The position numbers and the translations under genes were made by a program. This document shows positions 1 to 22,000 of a stretch of 64,000 nt of DNA, piece after piece. Below the pieces are notes generated by a model that saw only the letters and a program-made list of their open reading frames with translations, did not search any database and was not told the origin of the DNA. This DNA comes from Amoebophrya sp. A120 (taxonomy: Eukaryota > Protista > Dinoflagellata): positions 9,373,412 through 9,437,411 of the forward strand of contig CAJINV010000002.1 in the NCBI GenBank assembly GCA_905178155.1, in the 5' to 3' direction. Numbering within the stretch: the first letter of the stretch is position 1; every line of letters starts with the position of its first letter.

Positions 1-3000
1 CGATTCCGGATCCAAACTGGTCGCGGTCCGCCGCTGCGCAGGTGTTCCTCGAGATGACCTACGGCGGGCCGCAGAACGTGCGCGAGGCGCGGTCCAAGCT
101 GGGCCTGCCCGACTTGCCGATGAAGGGCACGCCGGTATCCGCCGACTTGAACAATGCGGATTCTATATCCTGAGTAAAAACCTACCCACACCAGAGTCAG
201 GATGGGGATTTTGCAACACAAACCTAGGAGTTTTGTGAGTCACGCATGACAAGTTGCACTATGCAGTGTAGTGCAGGTTAGCAAGTGCATCCGCATCACA
301 GATTCATCTGCTCATCCTGTTCACAGCATCACAAATTCCAAAACACGACTGGAAATGGCTCTCATGGGGATGCGCATTACAGGTCTTCCTGTCTTTGCAA
401 ATCTGCATTACAACTCTGGTGTGGGTACGTTTTTCCTCAGGATATTCTAGTGCGATGAAATCCCGCGTGGCCGTGCGGCCAAAGAACCATAGACTCCTGC
501 TATCAAATGCAAAAATGTCTGGGTCTGGAAGATTCCGAGACTTGTCATGCAGATTTCCATGATGCATGTCTTGTCATCTGGAATGCAGGACCTAGCATGA
601 CAGATTCTGCGGAATCCCTATCATGCTTATCCTGCATGAGAACCTTCTTCTCAACTTCGTCAAAAGTGGGCAACTTTTGGCATTCATGCAACACAGATTT
701 TTGCATGATCCAGAATTAGCATCACAAGCTCCAACCTTCCAGACCCAGACATTTTTACATTTGATACCTGCCCTTCCTCGACGAAAATGTCCTGCCCATC
801 GTCGCGGAGTTTCTGTTACCAAGTGCAAAAATGTCTGGGTCTGGAGGGATGCAACTTGTGATGCTGCATTTGGATTCCAGAAAAATCTGTATTGCATGAG
901 TAGCAAAGGGAATGCAATTTTTGCTACGCTGAGAAGGCATTTGTCATGCGGTATAGGCATCAGGAAGCCCTCGCAAAATCTGTGACGCTAGGGCATGCAT
1001 CACAGACATCAGGAGTCATGCAAAATGTGCATGACATCTTCGAGACCCAGACACTTTTGCATTTCATATCTGTTTGGCGGCAGCCTACTGCGGTGCATGG
1101 AAGTGTCTCCTTTGTGGTTTTGCTGCTTTCTGGACGTGCTGGACAAGTTGGCAAACCCGATCGACCTGGCCTTCAAAAACGTGATCGACGCCACCGGAAT
1201 ACTGCAGCTGGAGTACGCAAGGACGGACTGGTCGCCGCTGCACGTCTGCCAACCGGGCGTCAGAATAGACCGGGTGCTCATAGCCAAAGTGCTGCCCAGC
1301 TACGCGGGCCACACCGTCCGCCTGTCGTACGAGAGCGCGTATGAAAGTAAGTAGTTTCTTTTATGACCAATAGATACCAGAAGACTTTTTGACACTCTGT
1401 AGCGTCTTCTGACGCGTGTTGTTGGCATCCATGTATTTGTGTGTCAGCATGCGGGCCGCACTTTCGCAATCAATTCTTATTAGAGCGTCATGTTCCGCCT
1501 ATGTTCACGATTTTTGTCCCCTTTTCTTGCGATTGCAGAAAAGATGTCGTGAACTCTACAAAACGACAGCCGTTCCTTCGCAGCCGTATCTCCGGAAAGC
1601 CGAGCTAGCGATATGCACTGCAAAAGTATCGTACTCGTATACATGCATTACAAATTTCCTCAGCATGAGAAATAAAATTTGTAGTGCGGATTTACCTTGA
1701 GATAAAAATTTGTGATGCATGATTGCAATTACTACGAGTGCAATACTTTTGCACAGGATAAGCGAGCCAGATTTACGATTCCCACTTCCAGTTTGATATT
1801 TTCAGCGGAAGCAGGAACCTTTGGATCCACAAAGACATTTGCAGGTTCTTTTTTTTCGATTTCATGCTAAAGATAGAAGATAGATAGCAAGTGAATTGCC
1901 ATTTTTTTTATTTCTACTCTATGCCATGCAATGCAATGCCAATGCATGAATACGTCAAAACAGGTTCCACGGTGACGAGACCCGTGTTGCAGCCTTGCAG
2001 AACATCACGCCCGTTCGATATCCTCGGGGAAACTTGAGTCTTTTTTTTTGTGCATGTACTTGCTTTCTGTACTATGTTGAATGCGGTCCAATACTTCTAT
2101 CTGACGCACTGATTTCATTTGTGTTGGTTTGCTGCTCGATGTAGCTGGTACATCCACTGATGCTGCTCACTCTGCGTCTTTGCAATTTTAAGTGATGAAG
2201 TGTACACGGCAACAGAAAGTACTGACTCATCCTTTCTTCTCGTGGATACCGCCGTCGGCGACCGCATCGAGATTGCTGTGAACCTGTTCATATCCTGTGC
2301 AAAAGTATCGTACTCCTATTGCAATCCTTTTGTTAACGTAAATCCGCATTAATTTCTCATGCTGAGGAAATTTGTAATGCATTTATAAATACGAGTGCGA
2401 TACTGTTGCAGTTCATAGTTCAATGCATATGGAAAGACCGCGATAAAATCCATAAAGTGGAAACCGCCAAGGACTGCCTGGGCACCGAGCTTCCGGTAAA
2501 TAAATAAACGAATGTATGATCTATTGCCATGCACAAATAAGTGAAAGCATCCACCACGTTGCATTCTGTTCTTGATGTTGTCGGTGACGGTGTCAGTTGA
2601 TGAACAGAAAAGCAAAAGAAAAACATTAATTCACTATGAAAATCAGCTCCTGCCCGGTAGAAGAAGAACACGACGACTGGATGGATTTCGATTCCTTCGC
2701 CGCGAATTCAACGGAGCGGCTGCAAAACCCAAACTTCTTCGGGCCCCAGTTGCAGCATCGCTCCACGGAGTATGCTGGGTACTATGGAGATGCAACTGTG
2801 ATTTACTTACTTACTGAATTTGTATTGTTCGCGCCCCAACAAAAACTACGACTATTGGTACCGATACAATGAATATCATTCGTATGCCATGGCCATGATG
2901 ACTTGACTCTACTTGGTCTTCACTGCATAATCCAGAAAAATACCAAAAACTTCTCCAGCCTCGACGTTGCTACCAGCCGTTCCATTCTTCTCGCCAAAGA

Positions 3001-3220: not shown

Positions 3221-3846
3221 TCCTGCGTTGGGTGCTGGAAGAACTATAGCACGGCGCGCACATCGATAATGATAAATCTATACCTGCATTGTACTCCTGC
3301 AGGCACAGGTTATTCTATCTGTATCGACTGTGCAGGCTTTGGCTTTTGCGATCGCTGTTTGCTGTATGCAGCAGAAAAGCCCCCACGCTTTCGAAAAGCA
3401 AATGAGGTAAAAAACGCAGGCAAGAATAAAGACAAAGCAGCAATCTATGTGAGTACTTCAAACGCGGCAGGGGGTGCCTTTTTCTCACGAGGGGTTCTTG
3501 ATAGCTCGATTTTTGAAAATATGATCTTTCGTTTCGAGGTCATGACTTATTGGGCACTCGCATGCAAAAACTATAGAAACGTCGATGGAGAGTCTTGGTT
3601 CAAACTTCACTGCAAGTAGAGAGCGAATTCTGAGCAAAAGACAATCAAACTTCGCATATGAGCGATTTCCTTGCAAACTGTGACAGAGAAGCACTGTGTA
3701 ACTGTGAAAATAAAGCGTCGTGATTTTTCAATTTCTTTCGAAGTAGGCAGAGAAAACTTAAGTATCAATCGTTCAAGCGAAAACAGGAAAATTTGAATTT
3801 AGAGTTTACACTCCTCTTGTGAAGTAGCGTAAGGCGGAAACAGACC

Positions 3847-4950
3847 ATGCCATTCTTCGATCTACTCGGTCTCGGTGGTCATCACGACCTTCTAAGCGAC
3901 CACGCCAGTGCCTTGCACTCCAACTCCGGCCACGCAACCTCATTCGCGCGTATAATACCGTTCTTGTAATCGCGTTCTTGTATAATTTCCTAGGTAGTGC
4001 TGCGTAATATTGAGAAACTTTTCGCTCATGTTGTGATGCACGTCGAAAAATTTGAACGTAAGTACCAAAGGGAACCAACTGGCACAAAAAACTCACAACA
4101 GAGGACGGAAGTCTGGAATTTCGGGAATACTATGCGGCCGCTTGCCCCCACTGCAAGCATTTGGAACAACCCTGGCACACGGCGGAATCCCAATATCAAG
4201 GTACTGAACTGAAAGAGTGGCTCTTGCCAATCAAAACATTGATGAAATTCCTCTTCCATTTAGTACTACTAACTAGCCCAACGTCACATAGTACAAGCTC
4301 AAAAAAACCCTCTCCTCACAGGCCCGGTGAAGTGGACGCAGATTGAGTTATCAAATGTAAAAATGTCTGAGTCTGGAAGAATGCAAGATTTGTGATGCAG
4401 GTTTTCCATGACCCATGAGGTCTGGAATGCGAGACCTAGCATGACAGATTCTTTGAGGTCTCTATCATGCCTTTCCTGCATGAGAAACTCCCTCTCAACT
4501 TGGTCAAAAGCGGACGGCTTTTGGCACTCACGCAACACAGACTTTTGCATCATTTAGATTTAGCATGACCACAAGTTCTAATCGTCCAGACCCAGACATT
4601 TTTACATTTGATATGAGTGCAACGACGACAATTGGAACCCGGTTTCAGCCAACGTGGAGAAGTGCGCGCCAATTAGCGGGTTTCCGACCATGAAGATGTT
4701 CCAGGATGGGAAAGAGGTCGACGAGTACCACGGCGGGCGCACCGCGGACGACCTGCTGAATTACGTGAATAACTTCGACACCTCGAAGGTTTCCGCGCAA
4801 ACCATGTTACCGATGCTCCCCGCGGTCTTTGCGGCGAAGTTTCTCTTCGGAGAAGACACGACGAAGGAGGGGGAAGACGGAAAAGAAGAAGGAAAAGCTG
4901 TCTTGAAGAGCCCGGAAGTGCGCGTGGAGGACGTACAGAACTTTTTCTAG
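3847..4950 (+). CDS. Thioredoxin/PDI-like single-domain oxidoreductase (CPHC)
   Basis: Spliced product contains EYYAAACPHCKHLEQPW...GPVKWTQIECNDD...ISGFPTMKMFQDGKEVDEYHGGRTADDLLNYV, i.e. CxxC plus the cis-Pro GFPT motif. The start exon at 3847 is tentative. Confidence 0.8.
4349..4613. mobile_element. Introner-like TIR element, family A
   Basis: Family A TIRs, direct repeat TGAGT. Removal restores QIE-CNDD. Confidence 0.92.
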
Positions 4951-6098
4951 GCGAAGACTTCTATATGATAGGGAAGCGATTTCTTGGGTTTGGATCGTTA
5001 GCAAAACAAAGTTTCCCCACAAGTAGAACTACAACGACCTGGTGCGGATACAATAATCATGCCCTCGCCGATTGACAGTGATTGAGATTGAAGAAACGTC
5101 CTATAAATACGATTCGGAAACTACTTGGAATTAGTGTGTAGCGCATCATGGCTCGTCTCATTGTGATTATACAAACTAGAAATACCGAGTCTTCGAACTA
5201 ACTTTTTGAGGCAAACGCCTACCGAGCGTGAAAAGCTGATCTAGTTAATTTTGCTAGTACCTCCTGTGTCAATATTCCTTTTCGATTCTCAGGTGGAAAC
5301 GCTGCAACATCCAAGATGGTAGATTAATGTCGAAATCGATGTTGCAGCTGCAGTTTTGCATGTTGAGACAAAACAGAACTGTATGCGAGCTATCTTTGTT
5401 GAAGACAAACGAGTCCGACCTCGTAGAAAAGGCGAATAAGGATACATAGACCTCCGTTGCTTTGAGACAAGGCCGTGGCCATTGCCACAGGAAAGGAGCA
5501 GAGGGGGACAATTTTGTCTTCCAAGAGAAAACTATGTTGAAGCGAGCTATGTGCGCGCTTGTTACTTTCTTGAACTAACTTCTTGAGCTAGCTTTTTAAC
5601 TTATGCTTTTGCTTCTAACCTCCAGGCAGTTACCTTTACTTTTCGGCATGGTTTTCGTGTGTTCATGGCTAGCTGAAGGTTCTCGATTTTCCCGGGAGGG
5701 AGAGAAGTAGCAAGGAGTATGATTTCATTTTTTGGTTGCCGTGCTTCTTCGACGCTCATCTCTTCCTCGAGTGACGCGATGGTATAATGAGTGACGAGAG
5801 ACACACTGTGCTGCACTAGCGTTTTTTGGTTGTTCTTGCGTTCTTTCAGCCACCCCTGTTGCGGCATGATGAAGTAGTCCGCTCTGCGCGTACGCACGCG
5901 CTCGTGCTATAAATTCCTTAGAGCGCCGGAAGAGATGGAGCTGTCGGGTTTAACATAGTAGAGTTGTAGTGTAGAAGACGTAGCTGTCTACCACCGCGTG
6001 GGCGCGTCTCGTGCGCCGAGAAGCACTGTTCAACAGCGCAGGGTAAAGATACCAGTCTCCAACTTTGTTCCGGCATCATCTGACAGCTCAGTTCAAAA

Positions 6099-9000
6099 AT
6101 GTCGGCCGTGTCGCTGCTTCACGGCACCCTCCCAGGTGATTCTGCCCCGATCATGGCGCCTGACAACCTGCCCAGCTCGTGGTCACTGGCAGACACCATG
6201 AAGGCAGCACTCTCATCGACAGCCAACCAGCTTGTCCCCACGCCGCGCCGTCTCGCAACCCAGGCGCAGGTCCAGCAAAACCGCAACGCCATGCTTCTCG
6301 ACGAGAACGACCACGTTGGTGTCAGCTTTTGGCTGGTCGCATCCAGCATGTCGGCGTGCTCGGTGTTTTTCTACGTCCAGGCTGCTTTGGTGCCAAGGGA
6401 GTGGGCTGTGAGCATGCTGATTGCCGGGAGCGTCACCGCGGTTGCCTTATCAAATGTAAATATGTCTGGTTTTGGACGGATGCGAACTTGTGATGCTCGT
6501 GCTCCGTCGGGATTCTACAAAAATCTGTGTTGCATGAACAGCAAACGAGGTCCAGTTTTTGCTAATTGTTTGCGAGAGGGCATTTCTCATGCGGTATGTG
6601 CATCAGAAAGCCCTCACAAAATCTGTGATGCTTGGGCATGCATCACAGACATCAGGACTCATGCAAAATGTGCATGACATTCCAGACCCAGACGTACTTG
6701 TTTGCATTTGATATGCCTGGATCCAGTACGAAAATCAGAAGGACGTGTGGCAAGAGAGCCGCGAAGCACCTATCGTGGCCAGATATATGGACTGGTACTT
6801 AGGAGTACTAGTAAGTACTTGCAGCGGCAGCACTAATAGGGAACTTCAGTTTATACACACAACTTCGGTGCCGCCAAATACGAGTGAAAACCACAAAGCA
6901 TTAGCATATCACTTTGTGAACCCCCAGCAAAAAATGCAAGAAATAGCGATTTTATCTTTTCCGCACAACATTCTAAAACAGGATCATCACGGTGCCGCTT
7001 CAAATCCTGGAATTCTACATCCTTTTGAGCGTCGCAACTCCTCCAGATAAAGATCCGGTTAGCCTGGCTTTGTGCGCAAGATTAGTGGGCTCCGGCGTCG
7101 CCATGCTGGCATTCGGGTAAAAAAGAATGTCCTGAAGTTTTTGTTTGTTTCTGTGTCCTGCAAGGCCCAACGAACTTATTACTATGCTGGAGCGGCCTCG
7201 GCCACGGTCAGCATTACTAGAAGTTTCATGATTCTGAAGTGTAAGCAGGCTACCCTTCGTCTTCGCGAATTCATTTTGAAACAATAAATCCAGTTACATG
7301 GGCGAGACAGAGATCATGTCGCTCTGGCCGGCTTTCGTCACGGGATGCGCGTGCTGGCTGTACATTGTCTGGGAACTGTACTACGGGGAGGCAGCGGGTT
7401 TGGCAAATCAATTGTCTGTCGACGAAGCAAAGAAGTTCCTCCAACAGATGGAAGAGCGGGAACAGGCGGAATTGCGCGTAGCAGAGCAAGTACTGATAGA
7501 ACAGTCAAGGAAGGAAGAAGAAGCCGGTATAATCGTGCTTTTACTTATTTTGATTTTTGCTCTTGTGGGCTTTTTCCGTCGTGCTCGTGCTACAATTGGA
7601 TGATCAACGTGCAACAGTAATATGAGTACAGTAGCCTCCGCTATTATGGTGCGATAGTAGAGCTAAGAAAAAAGCAAATAAAAACTCTTCTGAATTAACA
7701 GAAGCGGAGAGGGAAAACGGCGCCCGACCTGGAAAGGATCTCGACACTTTTTTGACGACCGGGTCTCTTGAGGGTAATATGGTGCCTAAAGTGGGACCGG
7801 GGTCTGTGAGATGTTGCGCCTGAATTTTTTTGCCTACAAATGATGTCAGAGCGTGACACGATGAATAACTTTTCATGTATTGGAGATGATAATCTTTTCT
7901 TTGACACGAAAAGTAAAAGCACAAGTGATACGTATGTATTTCATTCTCTCCAGAAAATTCCCCCGTCCCTCAAAAACCCCTTCCATAACCGCACCAAAGC
8001 GCTCGAAGCCAGCACCAAAAGCAGTGGTGATCAAGCGAGACAAGTATCAGCTGGACGAGCGAGAATTTGTGAAGCCCATCGCCGAGCAAGCGTTTGACGC
8101 CTTGCGGATGATCTTTCTCTTCGGTTGGGCGATCTACCCGGCGAGGTAGGTTATGATTCATTTTGGGAGTTCTTTTCTAAGTAGGATATAATTCATTTTT
8201 TCTTCTTGCGCCATCTCGAGGGGCAGACGTAGGGCACGAAAATGTCCGAGGATCATGCTTGGTCGTGCAATTTCCCAATCATCTTGAAGCTATGTACGTC
8301 TACCTCTACCGCTCGTGAAAGAAACAGAAAATACAAATACCCCGTAGTTACGCGTGGTACCACCTCGGCGACGACGATAGCAAGGAGGACCGGTCAAATG
8401 CCATGAACGCACTGTACAATCTCGGCGATCTGGTGAACAAGATCGCGTTCGGTATTGCCGTCTACTCCGCCGCCGGCAGTGAGGAGCAAATGCAGAAGCA
8501 GATGGAGCACCGGGTCATCCGGTTGGAAATGCGCATCATGAAGGACTGGATGCAGCAGCTGAAGTCCATGGGCATCGTGCACCGGAAGTTCCGCGGCGAC
8601 TTGAAATCCTGGCTAAACCTGGACGGGGAGAGCCAACAGAGCCAGGCAAACAACAAGGAAGTCGGGGGCAAACCGCGGGTGGCGCCGCCGACGGGAAACA
8701 ACGGAGCGGGGGGTAGCGTCGTCGGTGGCTCCAGTTTAGTGGGCAGAATCGGACCCAGTGCGGCCACGAGCGGCGGCTTTGGCGCAGGGAAAGCAAATAT
8801 GATGAATCCACGTAAAAACAATGCTGCCTAATATACTTTTGCGTAGATGCAACAACTTGCTCAAGAATCACATGGTTGTACTTTAGGACTTCTAGAATTT
8901 TTACCTAGCATCTCCATGATCTCGCAGTGGAGGTCCTACTTAGCTCAAAAAAGAGGAAGTAGTGTCGACACATTGCTCTCGACAAGCAGCTATCTTTTCA

Positions 9001-9566
9001 AACATATTTATTAGAACAATATGTGAAAAACACTATCAGCCATGCTGTTATCCGGCGCTGCGGGACTGAGTGGCCAGCAAGGAGCCACGACCCAACAACT
9101 CCCTGGTAGTAGTACCGCGGCAGCTGCAGGCGCAAGTCCCCCAGCGCCAATGAACGCGCTGACAACCAGCAACTTCCAGTTCACGGCTGGTGATCAGCTC
9201 AACTTTTCGAGTACTTCGATGGGAATGATCAACAACAACCAGCGGTCTATGCAGCCGGCGCTGTTCACCATGGACAACCCCGGCACTAGCAACGATAGCA
9301 TCTACCACGATGTGGTCAACAAAACGATTGGTCCCAACGAGATGCTGAACTACACTGGTGGCAATGATACGAGTGACGACGGTTCTCGCGGCAATGGTAA
9401 GTGGAGTGAGCAGGAGTGGGAGCAGTGGAAGCGGGATAAGAATCAATCCTCATGGAGCAACTGGACGGACGCCGAGTGGGAGGGGTGGCGAAAAAACAAG
9501 GAAACCGGGGCAAGTAACGGAGCAGCTGAATATGCCGGTAATGATAACAATTACTCTGGCTATTAG
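6099..9566 (+). CDS. Proteorhodopsin-like microbial rhodopsin with E-F loop insertion and long C-terminal tail (~664 aa)
   Basis: Exons ~6099-6447, 6719-6794, 6982-7116, 7294-7527, 7936-8145, 8348-8811, 9040-9566. Motifs DHVGVSFW, RYMDWIITVPLQILEFY, MLAFGYMGE, WLYIVWEL, FGWAIYP and YNLGDLVNKIAFG (retinal Lys) match proteorhodopsin helices A-G. Confidence 0.9.
6448..6713. mobile_element. Introner-like TIR element, family A
   Basis: Family A TIRs, direct repeat TGCCT. Removal restores TAVA-WIQY in rhodopsin helix B. Confidence 0.92.
7528..7930. mobile_element. Decayed introner-like element in the rhodopsin E-F loop
   Basis: TATAATCGTGCTTTTACTT ... AAGTAAAAGCACAAGTGATA inverted ends, direct repeat decayed. 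Removing the element plus 5 nt is in frame, whereas the GT-AG pair 7527-7953 is not. Confidence 0.6.
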
Positions 9567-10525
9567 ATGACGATCTAGATCTGTAGTGGCTATTATCGAA
9601 GTTGTTGAGGAAGAAGGATAAGTAGGAATAAGGATATCAATTCGCGCTGCGTGATTTAAAATTTGTTTTCGCGCACCGTAACCGTCGCGTCGTCCTCTCT
9701 AACTGCAAAAGTTCGAGTTGTAGATTCTACAAATAGGGATGGCGATGCTTTGCGTAGAAATAAATACAGAAAACCGATTACCAAAATAGTGCAACTATAT
9801 ATAAGGCTGCAAGTGCAATTGGCTGCAAGTGAACAGTCAAAACTATCAAAATATCAAAGACCAAGGAACGCGTGGTAAGGTGAATTAACATAGACAAATC
9901 AAATCCAAGGAAGAAATCGAGCCCTGTCGTGTGTTGAATCGTCTCCGATATGATATTGAAGTGAGACGACAGACTAGAAAATGTGTTAAAACAAAAAGCA
10001 TGACACTTCTTTTCAATAGTAGCATAGGCTCTAGAGTAGATGACAGAAGTAAAAAAGTACTTACCTATATGCTATGATGAAATCTTTGAATGATGTGCAT
10101 AGTAAGAAAGAACGCAGTTGTGCGTGTCCTCGTGCTCGTGTTTCACCGAAAAAGAACTTCTACCTACCCACCCCTATTTCTGTTGTCTGTGGGCAGTTGC
10201 TGTGTTGTCTTCCGTCGTTTGTCTTCTTTGAGTGCAGATCTTTACAGCGCTGCTTGCCCTTGCTTTCACTTTCTTACTGCGACTGTTTTCCTTTCCTACG
10301 TTTTCATTATACCTGATTTCTTTTACCTCCAGGTGCTACATCTTTCACTTCGCCCTAAAGCCGGCGCCCTGAGAGCCCTGAGAGTCTTTTTTTTCTCGTC
10401 CGTAGACGGCTCTTCTCGTTTTCTCAAAAATAGACCGCCACCGGTACCACTGCTTCTACACGAGCGCGTCAAGTTGGGGGCCTGCGCCGGAGACGGAGTG
10501 GCCTGGATTCACATACCGCAAAGTT

Positions 10526-11653
10526 TTGCAGCAGCAGCGCCGAGCGTCGCTGGAGAGAATCAACCTTGACCCGGAAAGAAGACGCAGCCGGCTGGAATTG
10601 GGGTTGGTTTTCAAAGACGAAGACAAAAAATACCACACGGCCGTACCGGGAGGTGAGCCGTCTGATGCTCCTGCAAGTAGTACAAGAACACAACCTGCAG
10701 CCGCACCATCGTCGTCCTTCCCGAGACCACAAAGTTGCCAAAGTCACGAAGGTGTTGGCAAAAGGCACGAAGGTATTGAGTACAGTGAAGACTGCACGTT
10801 TTTTGAAAGCGGCGACGAAGACGAGGTACACCAGACCGACAGAGTCAAAGTCATCCACCTAACCAGTCACGCCGACGACACCAGGAGCGGGCTTGCCGAT
10901 GCAGGGATGAACGGAGCATTTGCTTTCGCGGGCTCCGTTCAACATTTTGTAGTTCCCGTTGCTTTTGCAGACGGTGGCGCTGGTGCCGAGCCTCAACTTT
11001 CTCCACCGCCAGAGAATGAAATTGAAAGACGTTTGTCCGCATTAAATCAAGAAGATGCTTTTCTTGCGACCCATGCGGAGGGCTACAACCCTTGTCCTTC
11101 CGTAGGTTCCGACACAGCTTCTTTCCAGAACAAAAATACCGCAATCAACCAGACGCCCACTTTCGGCACCTCCGCGTCTACTTCCCTTTTCGGGCCGGGA
11201 TCTCAAAGCCACAAGCCGAGCGCTGGCTTCTCTTCCAATACCGGAACAAATAAAAGCTATAAACTACACCCACAATCAGAATCACCAGCCTGCGCCACAG
11301 CAACTCCAAGTTTACCGTACCGCGAGCGCGCCGCCGACATTTCTCCGCCGCCGCTACCTCGATCGAAGGTACCAGAGAGCCGCGAGAAAGATAGCTGGTG
11401 TGTCGACGTTCTTTCTTCCGGCAACACAAGAAATGACTCTATCACAGCACACGACAAGCACCAGGGGGTATCAGACCAGCACGAGCTCGCGCGGTCAGAG
11501 CTACAGAAACTCCAGGAAGAGAATTTACTGCTGCAAAAGCGCGACAGCCAGAGTCGACGAAAAAGTGATCTTCTGTGGGACCGCATACAAAAATTGATGT
11601 TAGTGGTGGAAGCGCAGCAGAGCGAAATTAAGAATTTTAGTGGTGCCAGCTAA
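10526..11653 (+). CDS. Hypothetical low-complexity protein with C-terminal coiled coil
   Basis: 375-aa ORF, S/P-rich, ending ELARSELQKLQEENLLLQKRD...IQKLMLVVEAQQSEIK. True start uncertain. Confidence 0.6.
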   Translation: MQQQRRASLERINLDPERRRSRLELGLVFKDEDKKYHTAVPGGEPSDAPASSTRTQPAAAPSSSFPRPQSCQSHEGVGKRHEGIEYSEDCTFFESGDEDEVHQTDRVKVIHLTSHADDTRSGLADAGMNGAFAFAGSVQHFVVPVAFADGGAGAEPQLSPPPENEIERRLSALNQEDAFLATHAEGYNPCPSVGSDTASFQNKNTAINQTPTFGTSASTSLFGPGSQSHKPSAGFSSNTGTNKSYKLHPQSESPACATATPSLPYRERAADISPPPLPRSKVPESREKDSWCVDVLSSGNTRNDSITAHDKHQGVSDQHELARSELQKLQEENLLLQKRDSQSRRKSDLLWDRIQKLMLVVEAQQSEIKNFSGAS

Positions 11654-13002
11654 GTTTATAATTGCATGCAACGGTATGGCTATGGACCGCGTCTCGCCCT
11701 CGAGCAGTTGTTGTGTACAATAATCAGAAAGATGTGCTGCCTGCAGTGCAAGTGCAATCATCCTGGTGCAAAACCAGACCGTGAGTGAAAAAGCAATAAG
11801 CAACATTTTGCAAGAAGAAGGACCTCGACCTTCATGCAGCATATATAACCGAAAAGAATGTTCTTTTAGCAGTGGTGTGCCATTGGATAAATCGTTGGAA
11901 GTAGTTGCCCATCGGCTGGGCTTGCATTTGTGTCGGAAGCTTCAGCTTCTTTGGCTCCTCACCCATGTTTTCGGTTTCTTGATCCGATGTAAGTGCATAA
12001 TCTCTTCGCGTGTTGGAGTCCTAGCCTCGGTAAAAAAAATTGCTCTTTTTCGTTTTTCACATCGGTGTGCCTCCATTTCGTCCTGCTTCTTCGTTTCTAG
12101 AAAGCTTCAATACGTGCAAATCAACACGGGATCTACCCAAAAATTATGATGATAGGAAATCACGGTAGTGCAAAATTCGGCTCACGGAAGACAAATCGAT
12201 CCGATCGCATCGAAACACCCGCAAATGATCAATAAACTGAAATGCGCTAACCTTGATCTTCCTTTTCCATCCTCACCGTGAGAGGAACTAGGAAATGCAT
12301 GGATCTTTCCGTACCAGGATGCGATTGATCGGTCGCCGGAACTTTCCTCGACCGAAAAAAAAAGCGCAAATTCTTCAAAATTATTGCGGAATCAAAGCTC
12401 GGTTTATTTCCTATTCACCCCCACAGAGATGTTGCCGCTGCGGAGAATTCGTGTGGAGTCTTTGAACAATATTTAGAAATTAGAAAATTTCTACCCCTTT
12501 CGTGTTGTTAGCACCAGAACTACCTGTAAAGCAATTTTATGACTGTGAATCTCTATTGGCAACAAGATATGTTTCTTAGGCCTTATTTTCTTCTTTCTCT
12601 ATTGTAGAAATATCCTTTTTAAACTTAGCGGCCGTAGCAGAGTTCTTGTAATCATCACTGTATGATTTTGGCCAGACCCGCACTTTAGCATCAGCATCAC
12701 AACAAGATTTTACATATTTGGAAGGACTGCTTTGGTTCATTGCAGATCGGCACTCGTGAGCTCCAGAACTACTACTATTTATGAATTGGTTTCCTGTTTC
12801 CACCTTTTTGTTTCTGAAATATCTTGGCACACTTTGGTATGTAAAGAAAAGAACTACATGAAACTCGCGAAATGAAGATAAAGAATCTTTCATTATACCT
12901 CTTTGTACCAATCATGTTATATTTTATCACCCGACAAAGTCGATTTCACCCCCGGCCTCCGGCAGTAGTTGATTGTTTCTACTTGTGAAGACAACAGGCA
13001 AA

Positions 13003-16000
13003 ATGGAAGGCAAGTTTTTCTGCTTTTCTGAGCCTTCGCTCCACTTGACCCCGGCACCAGGTCGTAAAAATATTAAAGGAAGCAAAACAAAAAAGAAGCC
13101 TTTGAAAGGCTACAGCGCCGACATTGACGATGAATCCGAATTCCTCGACCACGAGAGCAGTTTATTTTCGCAAGAGCCTCCAGAGTTTGGAGAAACGAGA
13201 AATTTTGAAGGCGGTGCGCCCTCTGCCGCAGTGTTACAAGAACAAGATCAACATGCAGCTGCTCAAAATGACGACGGCTCTAATCATGCACGTGGACAAG
13301 AAACTACACGTACGGCACTGCAAGACGCCGACAACGGCACGCGAGACGAAAACGACGAAGGTGAACCGGAACCCCGTCAGCAACTACATAGTTCGAAAAG
13401 TAGGGTTTATTTCGACCTTCAAGGCGGCAGTTTTACACCGATCGGCAGAAAGACGAAGACGCTGCCGGATTTCACAGACAACCGATACAAGGATGGTGCG
13501 AACAAGCGACAAAACACCGCTATCTCACACCGACCGCACGCCACGGAGACGGGGGAGGATGTGGATGTTGTCCCCACGGCAAATTATATCACAGACCGCG
13601 CGCGAAGAACATACTCGAATCAAAACCTCGTGGCCCCTCTGAACAACTTTTCCAGTGACCACGATGACGCAGCTGCTGTTCGTCCCGAGGATATTGAACC
13701 GGACCACGAAAGAACAACGCGAGTTTCCAAAGTGGGTGTGGTATCGCCGAGAAGTAGCTCGACCTCTTCCTCGTCGGAGGGCAACAATCACGAGTTCGAG
13801 AACCTAGAGGATGAGTCTTTCGAGTTCGGGCACCTGTGCGGCAAGGGCGGCTCGGCGGAAGTCTACGAAGTAATGAATCGGAAGGGCGAGAAATTCGCCA
13901 TGAAAGTATGGATTGCAAATATGTCTGGGTCTGGAAGGCAGTAACTTGTGATGCTAAGTCTACACCCTGAAAAAATGTGTGTTGCATGACTGCCAACAGT
14001 TGTCCACTTTTGACCAAGTAGAGAGCGAGTTTCTCATGCAGGACCGGCATGATATAGATCTTAGAGAATCTGTCATGCCAGGTCCTGCATTCCAGACCTC
14101 ATGGGTCATGGAAAATCTGCATGACAAGCTCCCACGCTTCCAGACCCAGACATTTTTGCATTTGATAGAAAGTCGTGTCCGCCAAATCGACCCGGCAGTT
14201 GGAAGGCTTCCTGCAGGAAGTCCGGTTGTTGGAATCCCTGTCGTCTAAAACTGCTTCTAACGCTTGTGCGGCAACGGCAGGAGGTCGAGGTGGGAACAAA
14301 AATTGTGCGGTGGATTTGAAAATGACAAACCCAACGCCCGAAGAGGAGTATGAAGCGAAAGCGGAACTCCGGCGGCAGCGGAAGGAGATCCACCGGTGCA
14401 TCATTCGGCAGTTTGCGAGTCAAGCGTTTTACGAGAGCAAAAAGTTGTACATTTTGCTCGAGTACGCGGAGTGCGATTTCCACCACTATCGACAGGAAAA
14501 ATCCCCCCTCCCCATATCAAAACAGAATTTCTGATGCTGGATTTGTGTACACAAATCAGCTTTGCATTGCGGGAGCGCGTTCCGGCTAGATCCCCAGCCT
14601 AGGTAGGGGCGTATCGGTCTAGTTGCTCAGCATGGCAAACGGCTCCCCTTTGGGCCCAACAGCATGACAAATCGCTTCCATAATGGGGGCGAAGCTTCTG
14701 GCTTTGTCTTCTTGCAAGACAAATGCGATTTGTGACCTCAAATCAGCAGCGCAAATTTTCGGAAGCATGCCTTTTCGATGTGGGGAGGGGGATCTTTCCT
14801 CTTAATAACCACTACCTGAAATCCTTCGAGAAGGGGATGCCGCTCCCGGAACTGGTGCACAGTTTCCACCAAATCCTCCAGGCGGTGAAACTGATCCACT
14901 CCCACAACATCGTGCACTTTGACCTGAAGCCCGCCAATTTCCTGATCGTGAAGAACAAGATTAAGCTGTCCGATTTCGGCCTGGCCCGCCGCATCGAGTC
15001 CGACGCCACGCACATCAGCCGGAACGGGCACTGCGGGACCATCCGCTTCATGTCGCCCGAGGCCTTTTACCAGGCCGAGAACGCCAAGGCGGAAACGTCC
15101 ATGAAGCTGAAACCTAGCACGGACGTCTGGTCCCTGGGGATCATCCTGTACCTCATGCTCTACTCGCAGACCCCCTTCCAGCAGTTCGAGTCCATGCGGG
15201 GCAACCGGGTGATGTTTGCGATCGCGGACCCGCGGATGCGGGTGTTGTACCCCAAGTTGCCCGACCGGTTTCTCATTTGCACGAAAAGTCGCGTCCTCCC
15301 CCCGGGCTTTGACTACAAAAAAGAGGTGGAGGCCGGCAACTTCGACGTGGCGAACCGCTATCTTCAGGTTGGGGTGCTGCATGTCGTCGCGTTGCTACAG
15401 TACTGTCTCAAGCACGATGCGGAAGAGCGGGCCAGCTGCGGGCAGTTGCTGGACTACTGGTCCTATTTGCTGACGATTCCGTTAGGCCCGTCTTGTTCTA
15501 CTTGTTCTGTTGCGGAAACTGGTACCAGTACGACCCCCGCAGAAGTACCGGGCGGGGAGCAACCAGAACCCAAATCGCTCGTACAACTACCAACACAGCA
15601 TCAAAACGCGACCGCCTCGCAAAAAGTCCAGTTGTTAATGGAGAGAAGCGTTCATAATTCCCCAGATGAACGAACTGCAATCTTTGTGCAGCCGGCCCCA
15701 TTCCCGCAGGGCGACAAATTTGTGTCCTTCGACGACGAAGACGATCTGACGACAAACTACCACTCAAACTCCAGCGGCAGTGAAAACACTGTAAATGGCA
15801 CATCTGCGACGTCCGAGAGTAGAAGCCAAAATGCAAGTAACAGCACTGATAACAATTCTATGACTCTTGAACAATCGGGAAGAGAAGGGAACAAGACCAC
15901 AGCTGCAAGTTGCAGCGTCGGGGTCGGATCGAGCACCACTTCTACGTCAAGCAAGAAAAAGACCTTTTACGCGAAGATTTTTCGGGTGAAAAAGGGGAAA

Positions 16001-19000
16001 GACTGGGACTGGAGTGATTGCTTGGCGCACCGGGAAAAAGATCTCGCACTTCTGTTTGATCTGCAAGACCAGAATATCATGAAGAATAAAACGGTTGACA
16101 ATCAAAATTCCGATGCTGATGAACAGGGAACGAGAACGACGGGAGGAGTTGTAGAGGAAGGAGAACGACCCAGTGAGGAACAACTCCTGCAACCAGGTTG
16201 TCTGCTGGGGACGCAAGCGCAACATTCTGTTTCTGCCGCACGCACTTCTAATCCCGATCATACGCTATCTTTCTCGAATCACGCGAACAACAGCTACAGT
16301 TGTGACTTGTTGTCCAGAGGACTTCCGCCCATTCCAGAAACACTCGGAGACGACGAGGAAGAAGAATCGAACGCATCGGCGCATCTTGAAAATCCGGACG
16401 GGTTTTCTTCAGGGCCGCTTCTCCACGAAGGTGGCGGTGTAGACCTGCTCCCAGATGAAACACTGAACCAGCACCGACATGATCATGATCGAGAGCAGAG
16501 CGAAACCCATAAGAAGGGCGTTTCGACGTCGTCCAACGAAGGAGAAGAGACGAGAGCGCTTCTGCCGTTCGAAAGAGCGTCGAAGCACTGCGACCTTGTG
16601 GACCTGGAGGCACCAGATCTGGAAATAAACGAGACCAGTGGGGGTTCCGGAGCATGCTCCTGCTCCTTGATTTGGATCATCGTCTGTGTTGTAGCAGCCG
16701 TTGTAGTCATTGGCGGAGTGGTGTGGATCGTTGTGTGGCAGACAAATCTCGCGCAAAATCAACAGGAAGGGGGAAACAATGCACCCAGCGAAGGAAATCA
16801 GGACCCACCCCCAATCACAAACCCGCATGGCGGTCAAAATTCTTCGGGAGGAGACAATTCTAGCGGGCATCACGGCACGAACGGGCAGAACAAAGTTGTT
16901 CCGTGGTTCATGACAAGCTTCGAAGCGAACAAAGTGATCCATCCCGACCTTCCAAGGGAATCACAGTGGCGGTGGATGCTGGAAGCCCTTTTATTAGGCG
17001 ATCGCGCGGCTGGCAGTGCTAGGGCTGGTAGAAATTTTGGCTCGCCGAACGCCACGGCCGACGCACTGGTCGCGCTTTATCTCCAGGCTGGAAATACGCC
17101 CGCGTCTCCTGGCGGTCGTACAGGAAGTAGATCTTCACCAACAAAGGCCGCTGCTGCTGTATTGCGTAATCGAAAAGGGGGGGACCACTGGGACAGCATT
17201 CCGGCAACAACATCTTCGGAGCGCCGGAACTTGCAGATGAACATGATCAGCCGACCTGCGCAGCTCTTTTTCATGAGCCGGCAAGCAGCAGCTGCGGGTG
17301 CGGTTGCGGCTGCGGCCCCCACCTCCACTTCCAGTGGAAACGAGGAATACCTGCGCACCGAGGTTCTGCCGCATCCGGAGAAAGTGCAGCAGTTGGTGCT
17401 GCAAATCTACGCCGACATCTACCGCAGGGACGAGAACACTGCGAGCTCCTCTTATCCTCTGAAGGAGCGGTGCCTAGAGGAGCTGAAACATCACGACTAC
17501 ACGGCTGACGAAAACAACCCAAACGAAGCCACGCTCCTGATTCCGGCGTTGCTTCCAAGTGGAGATGACAATCTTTTCATGCTTCCGGACGACAGTTTTA
17601 CGGCGCGCAAAAAATTCGTCGAAGATTTTCTCACCGTTTCTCGCAACGAAAACGGCAATTCCTCCTCTACCTCGACATCATCTTCTACAGGGCAAGGAAA
17701 CAACCCGGGGCGGCCTAGTCCTGACCCCCGACAGAGGAGATTGCAGTTGGCGCGGGAAAGCTACAGTCACATGGAGGCCGTCGTGCGGAAACTGCATGCT
17801 GTCGGCGATCGGCACCCGGGGCAGCCGAATAGTGCGAACAGTGTTGCCCTCGTCCTAAAGTCTTTTTTCTACTACTTCGGCTGCCCCGGCAATCTCAGCA
17901 AGAGCAGCGTCGTAGTGGCGCCAGACGAGGAAAACGGAACGCCACGGATGAAAACGGTGTATGACCAAGAAGCAGACAAAAGGAGGAAGGTCTTCCGGCA
18001 GGACTTCCACCTCCAAGAGAGCCAGATTCACTCCGTTGATGATTTTTTGCAGAAATACAACCAGAAAGTGGAAAACCTGCAGCACGGAGGTGACGATGGC
18101 GGCACGACAAACCTCGGGCAGTTGTCGCCTGCAGCAGCAGGAGGCCCGACGGCGAATGCTGGAACGAACGGAGGAGGACCTCCGGCACCGACACCGCCCA
18201 ACCATGTCGGGGCAAGTTACAGCGGCAGCAGTAGCACAGTACAAGGAAATCCTGCATTGCAGCCCCAGCCACCAACACCATCTGTGCCTCCACAAACGGG
18301 GCCCCAGGCCGGAAGCGCCGGAGGTGGTGCTACGTCCACACAACACCCAGAGGCAGTGCCAAACACTGCGACGGGCACATCAAACCTACTTCACCAGCAA
18401 ACCAGTACCGGACCTGGTGGCCCAACGCAAGTCGTGACGCCACCAACTACTAGCTCAGGTTCAACAGCTTCAACCGTGGTAGCGCAAGAACCAGCACCGG
18501 CAAACGAGAATGCGGCAACCACCTCCGCTCCGCCTGTTGTAACTGGGCCGCCAGCTGCACAACTACCGCCGCCAAGTGCTACTACTTTCTCTACTCCACC
18601 GCCCGATTTTCCCCCTCCTTCCGCGGGTCCAACTCCCCCGCCGAACGACTACTCTGCTGCTACGCCAACCTCTGGTCCTCCACCGCAGCCTATTCCACCG
18701 CAGCCTCTGACCAATTCGGCGCAAGCATCGCAGCCTGGTGCGCAACACGTGAACGCTGAAATTATCAACGCAGGACCGTCCATCGTCGGCAGCCTTGGTG
18801 CAGCACCCGCCCCGTCCGGGATAATTTCACCGACACTTAACCCCGGAAGTAGCTCCGGGGGCGCGGCAAGCGTCACTCCTTCCGCGGTGTTTGGTGAGAG
18901 CAGTACTGTTCTTGCTTCGTCCGGTGGTGGCGGAGGAGGTGGCGTTGCTTCCTCCAGTATCGGGGGTGGTGGCGCATCGAGTGCGAGTGCGGGTTCTGCT

Positions 19001-22000
19001 GCAGCTCCTGCTCCAGGCGGTGCTAGCAACGCCTTTCATCCAGCACAAGAAGCGCAGACACCCTTAGGTCCGGCGTGGTGGATGACGGCCAAGATCGTTC
19101 CCGCGATGAATCCCTTGCACGGTGTTTGGCCAGCAGTCCTTCGCAGGCTCCTGAAGGAAGGCGCGGCAGAGCCGGTAGTTTTGCAAGCGCTGCAGCGGCA
19201 CCTTCGAGACGCTTTGGAGTTGTCGGAGCTGAGCAACCTCTTCGAGGATCGGCATGATCTACGCCTGTTAGCCACGGCAGACTATGAGTGGAACAACCCG
19301 CATAGTCAGCGTCAGGAAGAGTTTCGGCGCGATTTTAAGGAAAAGCTTTTGGACAAAAGTGCCTCGGCCGTCCGCGGTTTGGTTAAAGCGATCTACCACA
19401 ATATTCGAAAAGAAAATTCGTTCTTCCGCGAGCACGCCGGTGGTAGAGTGGTGGATGAGTGCCTCAGTGTGTTGCAAGAAAAGCCTTCTAGCACACCGAC
19501 GCGAGCAACCGGTTCGGATGCAAGTGCAACTGAGAGGGAAAGAAGTGTACATGCAGCTCAAAATGCCGAAACAAGTAGCAGTTCCTCTTCTTCTCCTCCT
19601 CGAAGTGCAGCGCAGCTCAACGGGGCGCCCGCCGCGTCAGAAGATGGAACGCGACCAGGTGCTACGGAATCACTTTTGCTGGAGCCTGCGCTATTGCCCA
19701 ACCCGCGGAACCTCTTCGATGGGCGACAGATACTGCCCAAAACCAGGTTTCGAGCTAGTCGCGCAGAAGAGAGAGCCGCCCTCGAGGAGTTTTACACCAG
19801 ACCGGACTCCGCTCTTGAGAATCTGTCTGTCTTCAGAACAGGGTGGCACAAAGAAACAAAGAAGTGGGTTCTTCGACAAGCAGTGCGCAAGATGGTCCAA
19901 ATTATCGCAGGTGTGCGCGCGATCGTCGCCGGGTGGGTAAGTCCGATAAATCTGTTATCAGCAGCGAGTGCACCGCGGTCATATGCAGCAGCCGAGGCGG
20001 ATCCAGTCGCGCTGGCATTCTTTCTTTTCGGGTGCCCGATTCCAGAAGAACTCGCGCGAATAGAAGACCCGGTATATCTCGACGACCAGAACACTAGCGG
20101 AGAGGAGGAGGAGGAGGACGAAGATGCCACGCATTCTTCCCAACCGCAACGACCGGACAGGGTGGCAGTTGTCAAAAACAAATTCATGGAAACGGACACT
20201 GCCACGCATCCAGCATGGGAACTACCGCCCGTGAACGAGTTTGACGAGGACGCCTCTGAAGACAAGCACGCTTGCGCGGACCTTTACCACTACAATGCGC
20301 CGTCGCACCATCGTTCAATATTACATTTCCCCGATGCGCCCGATTGGACGCAGCGAGCGTCGGCCCTCCATCCGACTGTCGTCCGACACGGAAGGTGTAC
20401 AGTTTTGAAGAGGGAAAACCGAGGAAACGCTTTTTTCTTAAACCTTGACGGTGGTGCAGATGACGATGGTGATCGCGGCGGAGGTGGCAGTTCTCGGCGT
20501 GGCGGAAGTAGAGCAAACCACTTCAGATATGCTGAGGTGGGAACAACGACAACGACAACCTGGACGAGTCACGGGAATGAGACGAGAGAGGCCACCGCCG
20601 CGGAATTTCAGGCGAGCCTCGCGTCGTGGGTGGTCTTCCACTACCAGGGAGCGCACTGGTGGACCGACGGCATGGCGGCGCGGACGAATATCATTCCGGC
20701 GATGAATCCCGAACGCGGCCTCTGGCCCGCAATCTTCCGAGTCCTGTGCAACCACTCCCCAAGCGCCATGAGAGCGTATTTGGAAGTTGCGCGCGACAGC
20801 CTCGCAACAAGTAATAGTCCGGGACGGAGTGCTCCTGCCCGCGGAGATGCAGCTCCAGCAGTGGGGGTGAGTCCTTCATCCCTCTTGGCGACGGACGCAG
20901 AAGTGGCAGAAGCGCTTCGCGCAGCTCTCGACGGGGACTCTGCTGCACGCAACAATTCTAGTAGTACGCAAAATGTTGACGAGAATGATCGCGGAGGGGC
21001 CTTTGTTGGTAGAGGAACAACTTCCACGGTGAATCATCAGCAGGAAGTAGTAGAAGGACCGCAACCTACCACGTCACAGGCGCCGTCGGCAGGATCCTCT
21101 TCTACAACGCCATACATCAACCGACAGACTAGAATAGGGCAGCCTTTTTGCACTGCCGTCGCACGCGAGGTGCTGTCCGACGTTAGGGTGGTCCGGACAC
21201 TTTATCAAAAGGAAAAATCCCCCCTCACCATATCGAAACCGAAATTTGTGATGCTGTATTTCAGTACACAAATCGACTTATATTGCTAGAAGGCCAAAAG
21301 ACGCAGCTGCGGCATTAATTGCAGGCGATTTGTCATGCTGTTTCCCATTTCCAGCTGCCTCCTGTCATCCTGAAGATGCAAGGCTTTCCTACGCCACCCA
21401 GCACTACAGTCCGCTTCTTTTGCCTTCTAGCATGACAACATGATTTGTGGTCACAAATCATGCTACACAAATCTCCGTTCCAGTACGGGGAGGGGGGATT
21501 TTTCCTCTTAATACACTTGTGCGGCACGTGTACCAGCGGATCGCAAAGCATGCCCTCCTCGGGCGTATCAAATGTAAAAATGTCTGGGTCTGGAAGAATG
21601 CAATTTGTCATGCTAAATCTGAAGCATGCAAAAATCTGTGTTGCATGATTACCAAAAGTCGTCCAGTTTTGACCAAGTCGGGAGGCAGTTTCTCATGCAG
21701 GATAGGCATGGGAAAGATCGCACAGAATCTGTCATGCTATGTCCTGTATTCCAGACCTCATGGGTCATGGAAATTCTGCATGACAAATCGATGAAAATGG
21801 CTAAAAAGGGCTTCGTCGATCGATTGTGCCACTAGGGCCTTGTGTTCCGGCTATTCCGGATCGCAATCGATGGAGGGCGGGACCTGCACCGGCGACAGGC
21901 GCTACCCAACCAACCAACCCAATCGCGCATTCTTCCAGACCCAGACATTTTTACATTTGATAGGGCGCCACTCGCAGCAATGTCTAGCTAACGCCACGCA

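Follow-up and report, generated by a model that had tools for sequence, protein, structure and literature searches.

We analyzed a 64,000-nucleotide stretch of the genome of Amoebophrya sp. A120 (contig CAJINV010000002.1, forward-strand positions 9,373,412 to 9,437,411), referred to below as the window and numbered from its first letter. Between 6099 and 9566 it carries a gene for a proteorhodopsin-like protein with large cytoplasmic additions, which an earlier, sequence-only reading had described as a horizontally acquired bacterial pump repurposed as a blue-light sensor or regulated pump. Joining eight exons at the joints of public RNA contigs gives a 669-residue open frame on the plus strand, running from 6099 to a stop codon at 9564–9566. 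Ten public sequencing runs were matched to 6000–9700. Contigs of the RNA-type runs X1 and X3 (two samples of one study, the RNA type being assigned by guess) align to the window as eight segments that meet at seven joints, each joint in one contig/run, and transcript contigs start at 5941–5963, 5′ of exon 1. RNA-contig depth is zero in intron-only bins and in the upstream spacer, yet the DNA-type run X5 spans 6652–13931 in one unspliced piece, and it is on this basis that we interpret the joints as splicing. Among the runs with raw reads, X8 and X10 had none on the gene, and X9 (RNA) had only two, both crossing the fourth joint (intron 4). The gene is expressed and spliced, an observation that is not due to chance, and its transcript includes the loop and tail exons on which the sequence-only reading depends.

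All features of the gene lie on the plus strand, and conserved residues are given in green-proteorhodopsin numbering, anchored on an alignment of an ortholog, P0001, to green proteorhodopsin chains. Exon 1 (6099–6442) encodes a poorly conserved N-terminal extension (residues 1–66), helix A, and most of helix B; exon 2 (6714–6794) encodes the end of helix B, with Gln at the His75 position (6724–6726), and the start of helix C, with R94 and D97 (6790–6792). T101 (6989), Q105 (7001), E108 (7010), the C-D loop, and helix D follow in exon 3 (6982–7116). Exon 4 (7294–7526) specifies helix E and its extended cytoplasmic helix, the insertion beginning near 7418, and exon 5 (7702–7773) is a 72-nucleotide mini-exon within this E-F insertion. 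A basic stretch, a conserved pre-F motif, and helix F (W197, Y200, P201) are encoded by exon 6 (7992–8145). Exon 7 (8348–8811) contributes the F-G loop, helix G (D227; Schiff-base Lys at 8439–8441), a post-G helical module (8478–8624), and the start of a low-complexity tail, and the coding part of exon 8 (9040–9566) contributes a predicted-disordered tail with two conserved W-x3-E-W-x2-W helices (9402–9428 and 9462–9488).

Where six introns had been proposed, two of them introners and four GT-AG, the RNA contigs give seven, because the mini-exon sits inside the loop. Intron 1 (6443–6713) is a multi-copy introner with a 5-nucleotide direct repeat and 18-nucleotide inverted ends; introns 2 (6795–6981), 3 (7117–7293), 4 (7527–7701), 6 (8146–8347), and 7 (8812–9039) are GT-AG; and intron 5 (7774–7991), which is single-copy in the window, is a non-canonical GT-CG intron, a type listed for Amoebophrya in the supplement of PMC7789003. 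A 12-nucleotide inverted repeat (7535–7546/7911–7922) flanks the mini-exon on both sides and may be what was taken for a second introner.

Much of our comparison rests on two orthologs. P0001, a 596-residue Amoebophrya protein, was the sole match to exon 1 among longer proteins, and its cluster includes models from strain AT5.2; P0002, a 726-residue protein of strain A25, came from a search with P0001. Orthologs with the same layout are thus present in other Amoebophrya strains.

The membrane core is that of a proteorhodopsin. In a 42-row alignment comprising 24 canonical-length rows and 15 long forms (E170-to-W197 spacing of at least 63 residues), the window protein has R94, D97, W98, T101, V102, Q105, E108, M134, G138, E142, W159, W197, Y200, P201, D227, and K231. 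D97, T101, and E108, the DTE motif, are its residues 141, 145, and 152, Q105 is residue 149, the helix-G Lys is residue 371, and the His75 column is occupied by Gln119 (in the sequence WIQY), all as the sequence-only reading had them. The best sequence matches of P0001 are green and blue proteorhodopsins (E 3e-47 to 4e-45; PDB 7B03, 8CNK, 4KLY, and 4JQ6, with fold matches at Z 29–31), with which the window protein shares the DTE motif, Q105, the pocket, a short B-C loop, and the start of helix E*. Pfam finds only Bac_rhodopsin (PF01036) in P0001, at 112.7 bits against a cut-off of 24.6; seven single exon pieces of the gene itself returned nothing from Pfam beyond a weak match to this family in one (E 0.005). 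The AlphaFold model of P0001 (mean predicted local distance difference test score, pLDDT, 71; core blocks mostly above 90) predicts a seven-helix proteorhodopsin fold that overlays 4KLY and 7B03 with Z 31 and a root-mean-square deviation (rmsd) of 1.4–1.7 over 217–232 residues (for 4KLY, Z 31.1, rmsd 1.7, and 232 aligned), and its seven-transmembrane core is 40%–45% identical to pumps in the structural alignment. By sequence and by fold, then, the nearest relatives of P0001 agree with the bacterial proteorhodopsin ancestry proposed for this gene.

Typical dinoflagellate proton-pump rhodopsins are xanthorhodopsin-like and short. P0001 matches xanthorhodopsin at E 3e-6, compared with 3e-47 for green proteorhodopsin, and Gloeobacter rhodopsin at E 9e-10, with a fold Z of 25.5 as against 31 for proteorhodopsins, and we rejected a pump of the xanthorhodopsin type on both measures. 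The gene nonetheless resembles the pump rhodopsins of Oxyrrhis, Pyrocystis, and Prorocentrum, which lay outside our trees, in being a horizontally gained pump in a dinoflagellate (PMC11453091, PMC3942190, PMC10974037).

A complete DTE set with E142 and D227, on a fold that overlays solved pumps this closely, is what a working outward proton pump would present. Under this explanation, which we consider possible but rather unlikely, the additions target, anchor, or throttle the pump, for instance at the cortex, the flagellum, or an organelle, and its output is a local change in pH or voltage in which no bound transducer takes part. Dinoflagellate pumps have been found on plasma, endosomal, and vacuolar membranes (PMC11453091), and the substitution of His75 can be accommodated. 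The column holds Gln in the window protein and P0001 and Ser in P0002, and none of these has the His75–Asp97 pair. His75 sets the high pKa of D97, and the pair limits pumping in acid (PMC4374980, bioRxiv 2026.07.18.739351); its loss would therefore more likely broaden the working pH, which for a pump would allow operation at lower pH. We also tried loss of His75 as a marker of sensory function and rejected it: 10 of the 15 long forms keep the His, and 6 of the 24 canonical-length rows lack it, with Asn in its place.

The E50/R51/D52 polar network described between pentamer protomers (PMC8257665) is missing from the window protein, which has Gln, Ala, and Ala at these positions. Substitution of E50 by Gln and the change at His75 affect polar sites close to the pathway, and long cytoplasmic tails are typical of channelrhodopsins, so that one might suppose a light-gated channel, or a carrier of another ion, that depolarises the spore as algal channelrhodopsins do. 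We consider this improbable given a core so similar to those of pumps in which every pump residue checked is kept; the Atlas feature match named ChRmine scored 0.75, under the Atlas lead threshold.

Retinal binding and a blue color are likely from the sequence. W98, M134, W159, W197, Y200, P201, D227, and K231 are kept in all three orthologs. In flotillin-associated rhodopsins, two pocket positions block retinal and the substitutions H84V/E120G rescue binding (bioRxiv 2025.04.29.651185); the corresponding positions here, whose equivalence we infer from that rescue, are occupied by the small residues Val and Gly. It is because the pocket residues are kept and the blocking positions are small that we favor retinal binding. 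These observations speak against a retinal-free membrane scaffold or non-light sensor of the flotillin-associated kind, an idea to which we assign a slightly lower probability still than to a channel. In its favor, retinal-free paralogs that keep the Lys exist (bioRxiv 2025.04.29.651185), and Amoebophrya, a non-photosynthetic parasite as the sequence-only reading had thought possible for the source of this gene, has lost its plastid (PMC7789003) and may lack retinal, although the host alga could supply carotenoid. Flotillin-associated rhodopsins (PDB 9R21, fold Z 30.1) do resemble the window protein as proteorhodopsin paralogs with a non-pump role, but theirs is a blocked pocket with no proton donor, whereas here the pocket is open and E108 is present.

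The additions to this core are cytoplasmic. Spacing between E170 and W197 is 114 residues, compared with 26–29 in the 24 canonical-length rows, so the E-F insertion anticipated at about 80 residues is real but amounts to 87; the tail after the Lys has 298 residues, close to the 290 expected, as against 15–34 in canonical-length rows. With seven introns and without His75 or the E50/R51/D52 network, these parts set the gene apart from the green and blue proteorhodopsins. Within the loop, an acidic, charged helix of 42 residues (14 D/E and 7 K/R) leads into a basic stretch (7 K/R among 22), the latter in line with the sequence-only reading. The coiled coil proposed for the loop was rejected by a heptad count, hydrophobic residues filling at most 0.44 of a/d positions in any of the seven registers. 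In the P0001 model, helix E runs on from residue 171 to residue 228 (58 residues), helix G extends to 341, and helices at 344–361 and 373–376 follow it, as foreseen for the start of the tail; beyond them the tail is of low confidence apart from two short Trp-rich helices.

Conservation within the additions is uneven. Identity to the two orthologs is 21/24 and 16/24 for the helix-E extension, 16/19 and 13/19 for the pre-F motif, and 37/49 and 30/49 for the post-G module (61%–88% across these parts, against 79%–84% for the membrane core), but 20/58 and 18/58 (31%–34%) for the loop middle and 53/182 and 52/182 (29%) for the tail body. The loop ends and the post-G module are under constraint and about as conserved as the membrane core. 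The module is common to six sequences from several paralog groups, with 11 invariant columns, and modeled alone it folds as a helix and a short helix at pLDDT 87. The W-x3-E-W-x2-W motif occurs twice in the gene, and each ortholog likewise has it twice; across all six frames, the window contains no further copy.

A further comparison comes from a second assembly, where a near-identical allele, L094, retains every one of the eight exons and has GT-CG at the ends of intron 5. Over 640 codons the window and L094 differ by 19 synonymous and 6 amino-acid changes, one of the latter, beside an insertion, being possibly an alignment artefact; the loop part accounts for 6 synonymous and 2 amino-acid changes. 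The mini-exon has no substitutions, while its adjoining introns differ at 40/175 and 25/218 sites. These data bear on the suggestion that an ordinary pump acquired its loop and tail through neutral growth driven by introns. The gene is an introner target with strain-specific insertions in exon 6, and the loop middle and tail body diverge fast, as that suggestion predicts; yet loop ends and post-G module evolve about as slowly as the core, the mini-exon is invariant between alleles whose introns diverge around it, and the same insertion site with shared flanking motifs recurs across the family. Conservation and allele data have already largely refuted the neutral account, and we regard it as the least probable of the alternatives.

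The gene belongs to a family. A full profile-free scan returned 781 proteins at E ≤0.001, of which we inspected the best 150 and looked up 20; among the best 150 of the 781, many are interrupted at this same position by an insertion that common motifs flank. Long forms named include at least four in A120, at least five in A25, and at least three in AT5.2, several being fragments or partial models; two of the A120 genes carry consecutive tags, and further long forms come from environmental assemblies. E50Q and absence of R51 characterize 14/14 long forms with a residue there (15 rows), and E50 is present in 24/24 canonical-length rows. The proton donor is absent (DTQ) in 4/15 long forms. Together these features define a proteorhodopsin-derived long-form subfamily that is distinct from canonical proteorhodopsin. 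They also expose what a plain pump leaves unexplained: donor-less paralogs of the same loop design, family-wide loss of pentamer contacts, and retention of three to five long paralogs beside short pumps.

Phylogenetic analysis used proteorhodopsin-type rows only, keeping 32 of the 42 alignment rows after frameshifted, fragmentary, and near-duplicate rows were dropped (10 of 75 rows were dropped from an early tree). Twelve long forms group with support of 91/90 under a mixture model, in which the bootstrap had not fully settled, and 73/57 under LG+G4; with P0033 added, LG+G4 support is 90/88. In the mixture-model tree, the stem of the trio of window protein, P0001, and P0002 measures 1.04 and its tips 0.06–0.15, and this long stem with short tips suggests a burst of change followed by stasis. 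The acquisition is old and not a one-off in this genome. The phylogeny proposed as a check on the sequence-only reading groups the long forms, but the backbone of the proteorhodopsin-type-only trees has no resolution and singles out no bacterial donor, and a single origin together with short eukaryote-type forms was neither demonstrated nor rejected (p-AU 0.66). Relatives resembling the short type form their own clade (100/99), and a sister relation of these to the long forms was not seen in the tree. Three relatives, P0073, P0033, and P0057, have other layouts (an insertion in the C-D loop together with a long tail, an extended tail alone, or an E-F insertion of lesser length) and are possible intermediates. 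Canonical-length proteorhodopsins also occur on seven viral contigs (L081–L087), two of which pair at 100/100 in the final tree, apart from the long forms, and three more long-form paralog loci (L091–L093) lie on metagenome-collection contigs, where their matched parts contain few introns or none.

Short proteorhodopsins of the same genus provide an informative contrast. Coesel et al. (2021, PMC8017926) report that Amoebophrya has a blue-tuned proteorhodopsin; the three short Amoebophrya proteins are likewise of true proteorhodopsin type, with DTE, Q105, and His75 replaced (by Asn), but they have 272–396 residues and normal loops and tails and are read as ATP-supporting pumps. Since short proteorhodopsins of this genus are classed as pumps, pumping needs no long form. 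The added parts, moreover, are located where proteorhodopsin moves in the M state: helix E* belongs to its E-F loop, which influences the photocycle and shifts position in that state, and a single substitution in the loop is reported to change color and pKa. The long forms show that this loop tolerates 36–155 added residues.

Conserved helical extensions in the E-F loop and after helix G, missing oligomer contacts, a donor lost repeatedly among paralogs, and the continued presence of short pumps are most simply explained if the long forms pass light-driven movement on to a partner. With about even confidence, we propose that the window gene encodes a pump-derived blue-light signaling receptor, probably still cycling protons. 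Retinal on Lys371 would absorb blue light, as tuned by Q105; the Schiff-base proton would pass to D97 and be restored from E108; and movements of E-F and G in the M state would be levered into the long helix and post-G module, which would bind a putative partner. The disordered tail with its two Trp helices could be a docking or targeting region, and the receptor's output would govern the parasite's swimming, host finding, or timing. Beyond the conserved cytoplasmic helices, every one of these steps is inferred. Because E108 is kept, the gene product probably still moves one proton per cycle, and Gloeobacter rhodopsin is a reported example of a pump that also binds a regulator (PMC11217422). 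The repurposing put forward by the sequence-only reading is accordingly still conjectural: paralog expansion, donor-less paralogs, lost oligomer contacts, and short pumps in the genus count for it, and loss of His75 does not.

SRII/HtrII and Anabaena sensory rhodopsin signal light to a partner through their cytoplasmic E-F loop and tail. The proposed receptor would resemble these systems, and Gloeobacter rhodopsin with GvTcR (PMC11217422), in this working principle; their transducers are prokaryotic and separately encoded and their loops short, whereas here the additions are in cis and the donor Glu is kept. These rhodopsins reach a fold Z of about 25.6 to P0001, compared with 31 for proteorhodopsins. 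Enzyme rhodopsins and bestrhodopsins of algae and dinoflagellates are likewise eukaryotic microbial rhodopsins with large cytoplasmic parts, but Pfam detects no catalytic or bestrophin domain in P0001 or the downstream frame discussed below, and hydropathy indicates no extra N-terminal membrane helix.

Several observations weigh against a receptor. The full fast-pump set (R94, D97, T101, E108, E142, D227, K231) is kept, unlike in classical sensory rhodopsins, for which absence of the donor carboxylate is the criterion. Pfam gives no transducer or enzyme domain in P0001, and 15 neighboring frames scanned held no evident partner or transducer. The post-G module found no convincing match in a PDB profile search (best E 0.095, a SUGP1 fragment), Pfam (best E 0.048), Atlas (no usable feature match and, by structure, generic helices only), or fold searches (best Z 4.6 of 48,161 chains, with no Foldseek match), although this does not show that its fold is new. 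A likeness to a DEP motif gained no support from the PDB, Pfam, Atlas, or fold searches. The loop middle varies freely in the way expected of a linker, with family spacings of 63–182 residues and low identity. A published experiment found neither the prevalence of infection nor its development time to depend on light, and a five-fold higher spore yield in light was inseparable from host physiology (PMC7793755). Parasite phototaxis surfaced in our literature search only as the title of a reference.

We also entertain, more tentatively and at clearly less than an even chance, a broader proposal, in which the long forms would be a new class of eukaryotic sensory rhodopsin derived from a bacterial proton pump within a parasite lineage. 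The extended helix E and post-G helix would constitute a built-in signaling face, which may be likened to the third loop and helix 8 of animal opsins; the DTE-to-DTQ paralogs would record the transition from pump to sensor; and blue light would guide spores or trophonts to their hosts or cue the moment of exit. Algal blooms are brought to an end with the help of syndinian parasites, whose light sensing we found nowhere described. The subfamily reported here, conserved and expanded and rebuilt on its cytoplasmic side, supplies named genes that are testable in cultured strains; with short pumps, long DTE forms, and long DTQ forms in one genus, there is also a natural series in which to ask how a pump becomes a receptor.

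The long-form family is apparently undescribed. Our full-text search, whose scope included PMC12137139 (with 12 of its 21 supplement files) and PMC3852033 and excluded subscription journals and bioRxiv supplements, found no description of long forms, although a rhodopsin review or dataset may carry such a label in a tree; the word "rhodopsin" did not occur in the main Amoebophrya genome papers under the same search. The P0001 transcript identifier and family motifs were absent from the eight supplement files of PMC8017926 searched. For expression by stage, the supplements of PMC6176090 (10 files) and PMC9478091 (5 files) contained no microbial rhodopsin rows and none of the locus tags searched.

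The 3′ end of the gene may be more complex than the 669-residue frame implies. One X1 contig splices 9537 to 10333 (intron 9538–10332, plus strand), replacing the last nine residues with eight others before a stop. Farther along is a 415-codon frame (10406–11653, plus strand), in which the first ATG comes at codon 168 and over which RNA coverage continues: a single contig of run X4 stretches without a splice from 9040 to 11793 and takes in this frame, and a public A25 gene model fuses the rhodopsin tail to a homolog of it (E 2e-7). An in-frame acceptor at 10433 would yield 1,066 residues, but no splice using it was among the joints listed. The frame may be a last exon or a separate gene, a contig over two genes being no proof of one transcript. 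Pfam found no catalytic or channel domain in it. It ends in a predicted coiled-coil-like segment and has an RRxS sequence, also present in the fused A25 model, which we take to be a kinase-site-like motif.

Introners are frequent around the gene. Intron 1 has every feature by which Amoebophrya introners are defined (inverted ends of 8–20 nucleotides, a direct repeat of 3–5 nucleotides, multiple copies, and removal by splicing; PMC7789003), and its family has eight further long copies in the window at 66%–80% identity. Copies lie at 501–766, 816–1068, 13914–14167, 21566–21785, 55635–55803, 56222–56475, and 60171–60435. Because the ends of the copies at 4350–4613 and 13907–14167 are very deep in a DNA-type run, the family is abundant genome-wide. 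Exon 6 of L094 contains two extra inverted-end elements (L094:4254–4537 and 4579–4804, near window positions 8040 and 8075) that are absent from the window, an introner presence/absence polymorphism within the loop-coding exon; one of the two is similar to window 169–444.

Upstream of the rhodopsin, a spliced thioredoxin-domain gene (3685–5618) has a 24-nucleotide mini-exon and an introner copy of the intron-1 family (4344–4613), and its contig ends in poly(A) at 5604. Downstream, open frames of 2201, 1106, and 3861 codons (14684–21289, 26080–29400, and 29558–41143) contain protein kinase domains or pieces of them; these are the nearest signaling genes to the rhodopsin, and no link to it was seen. 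A piece of a serine carboxypeptidase S28 gene lies at 44003–45124.

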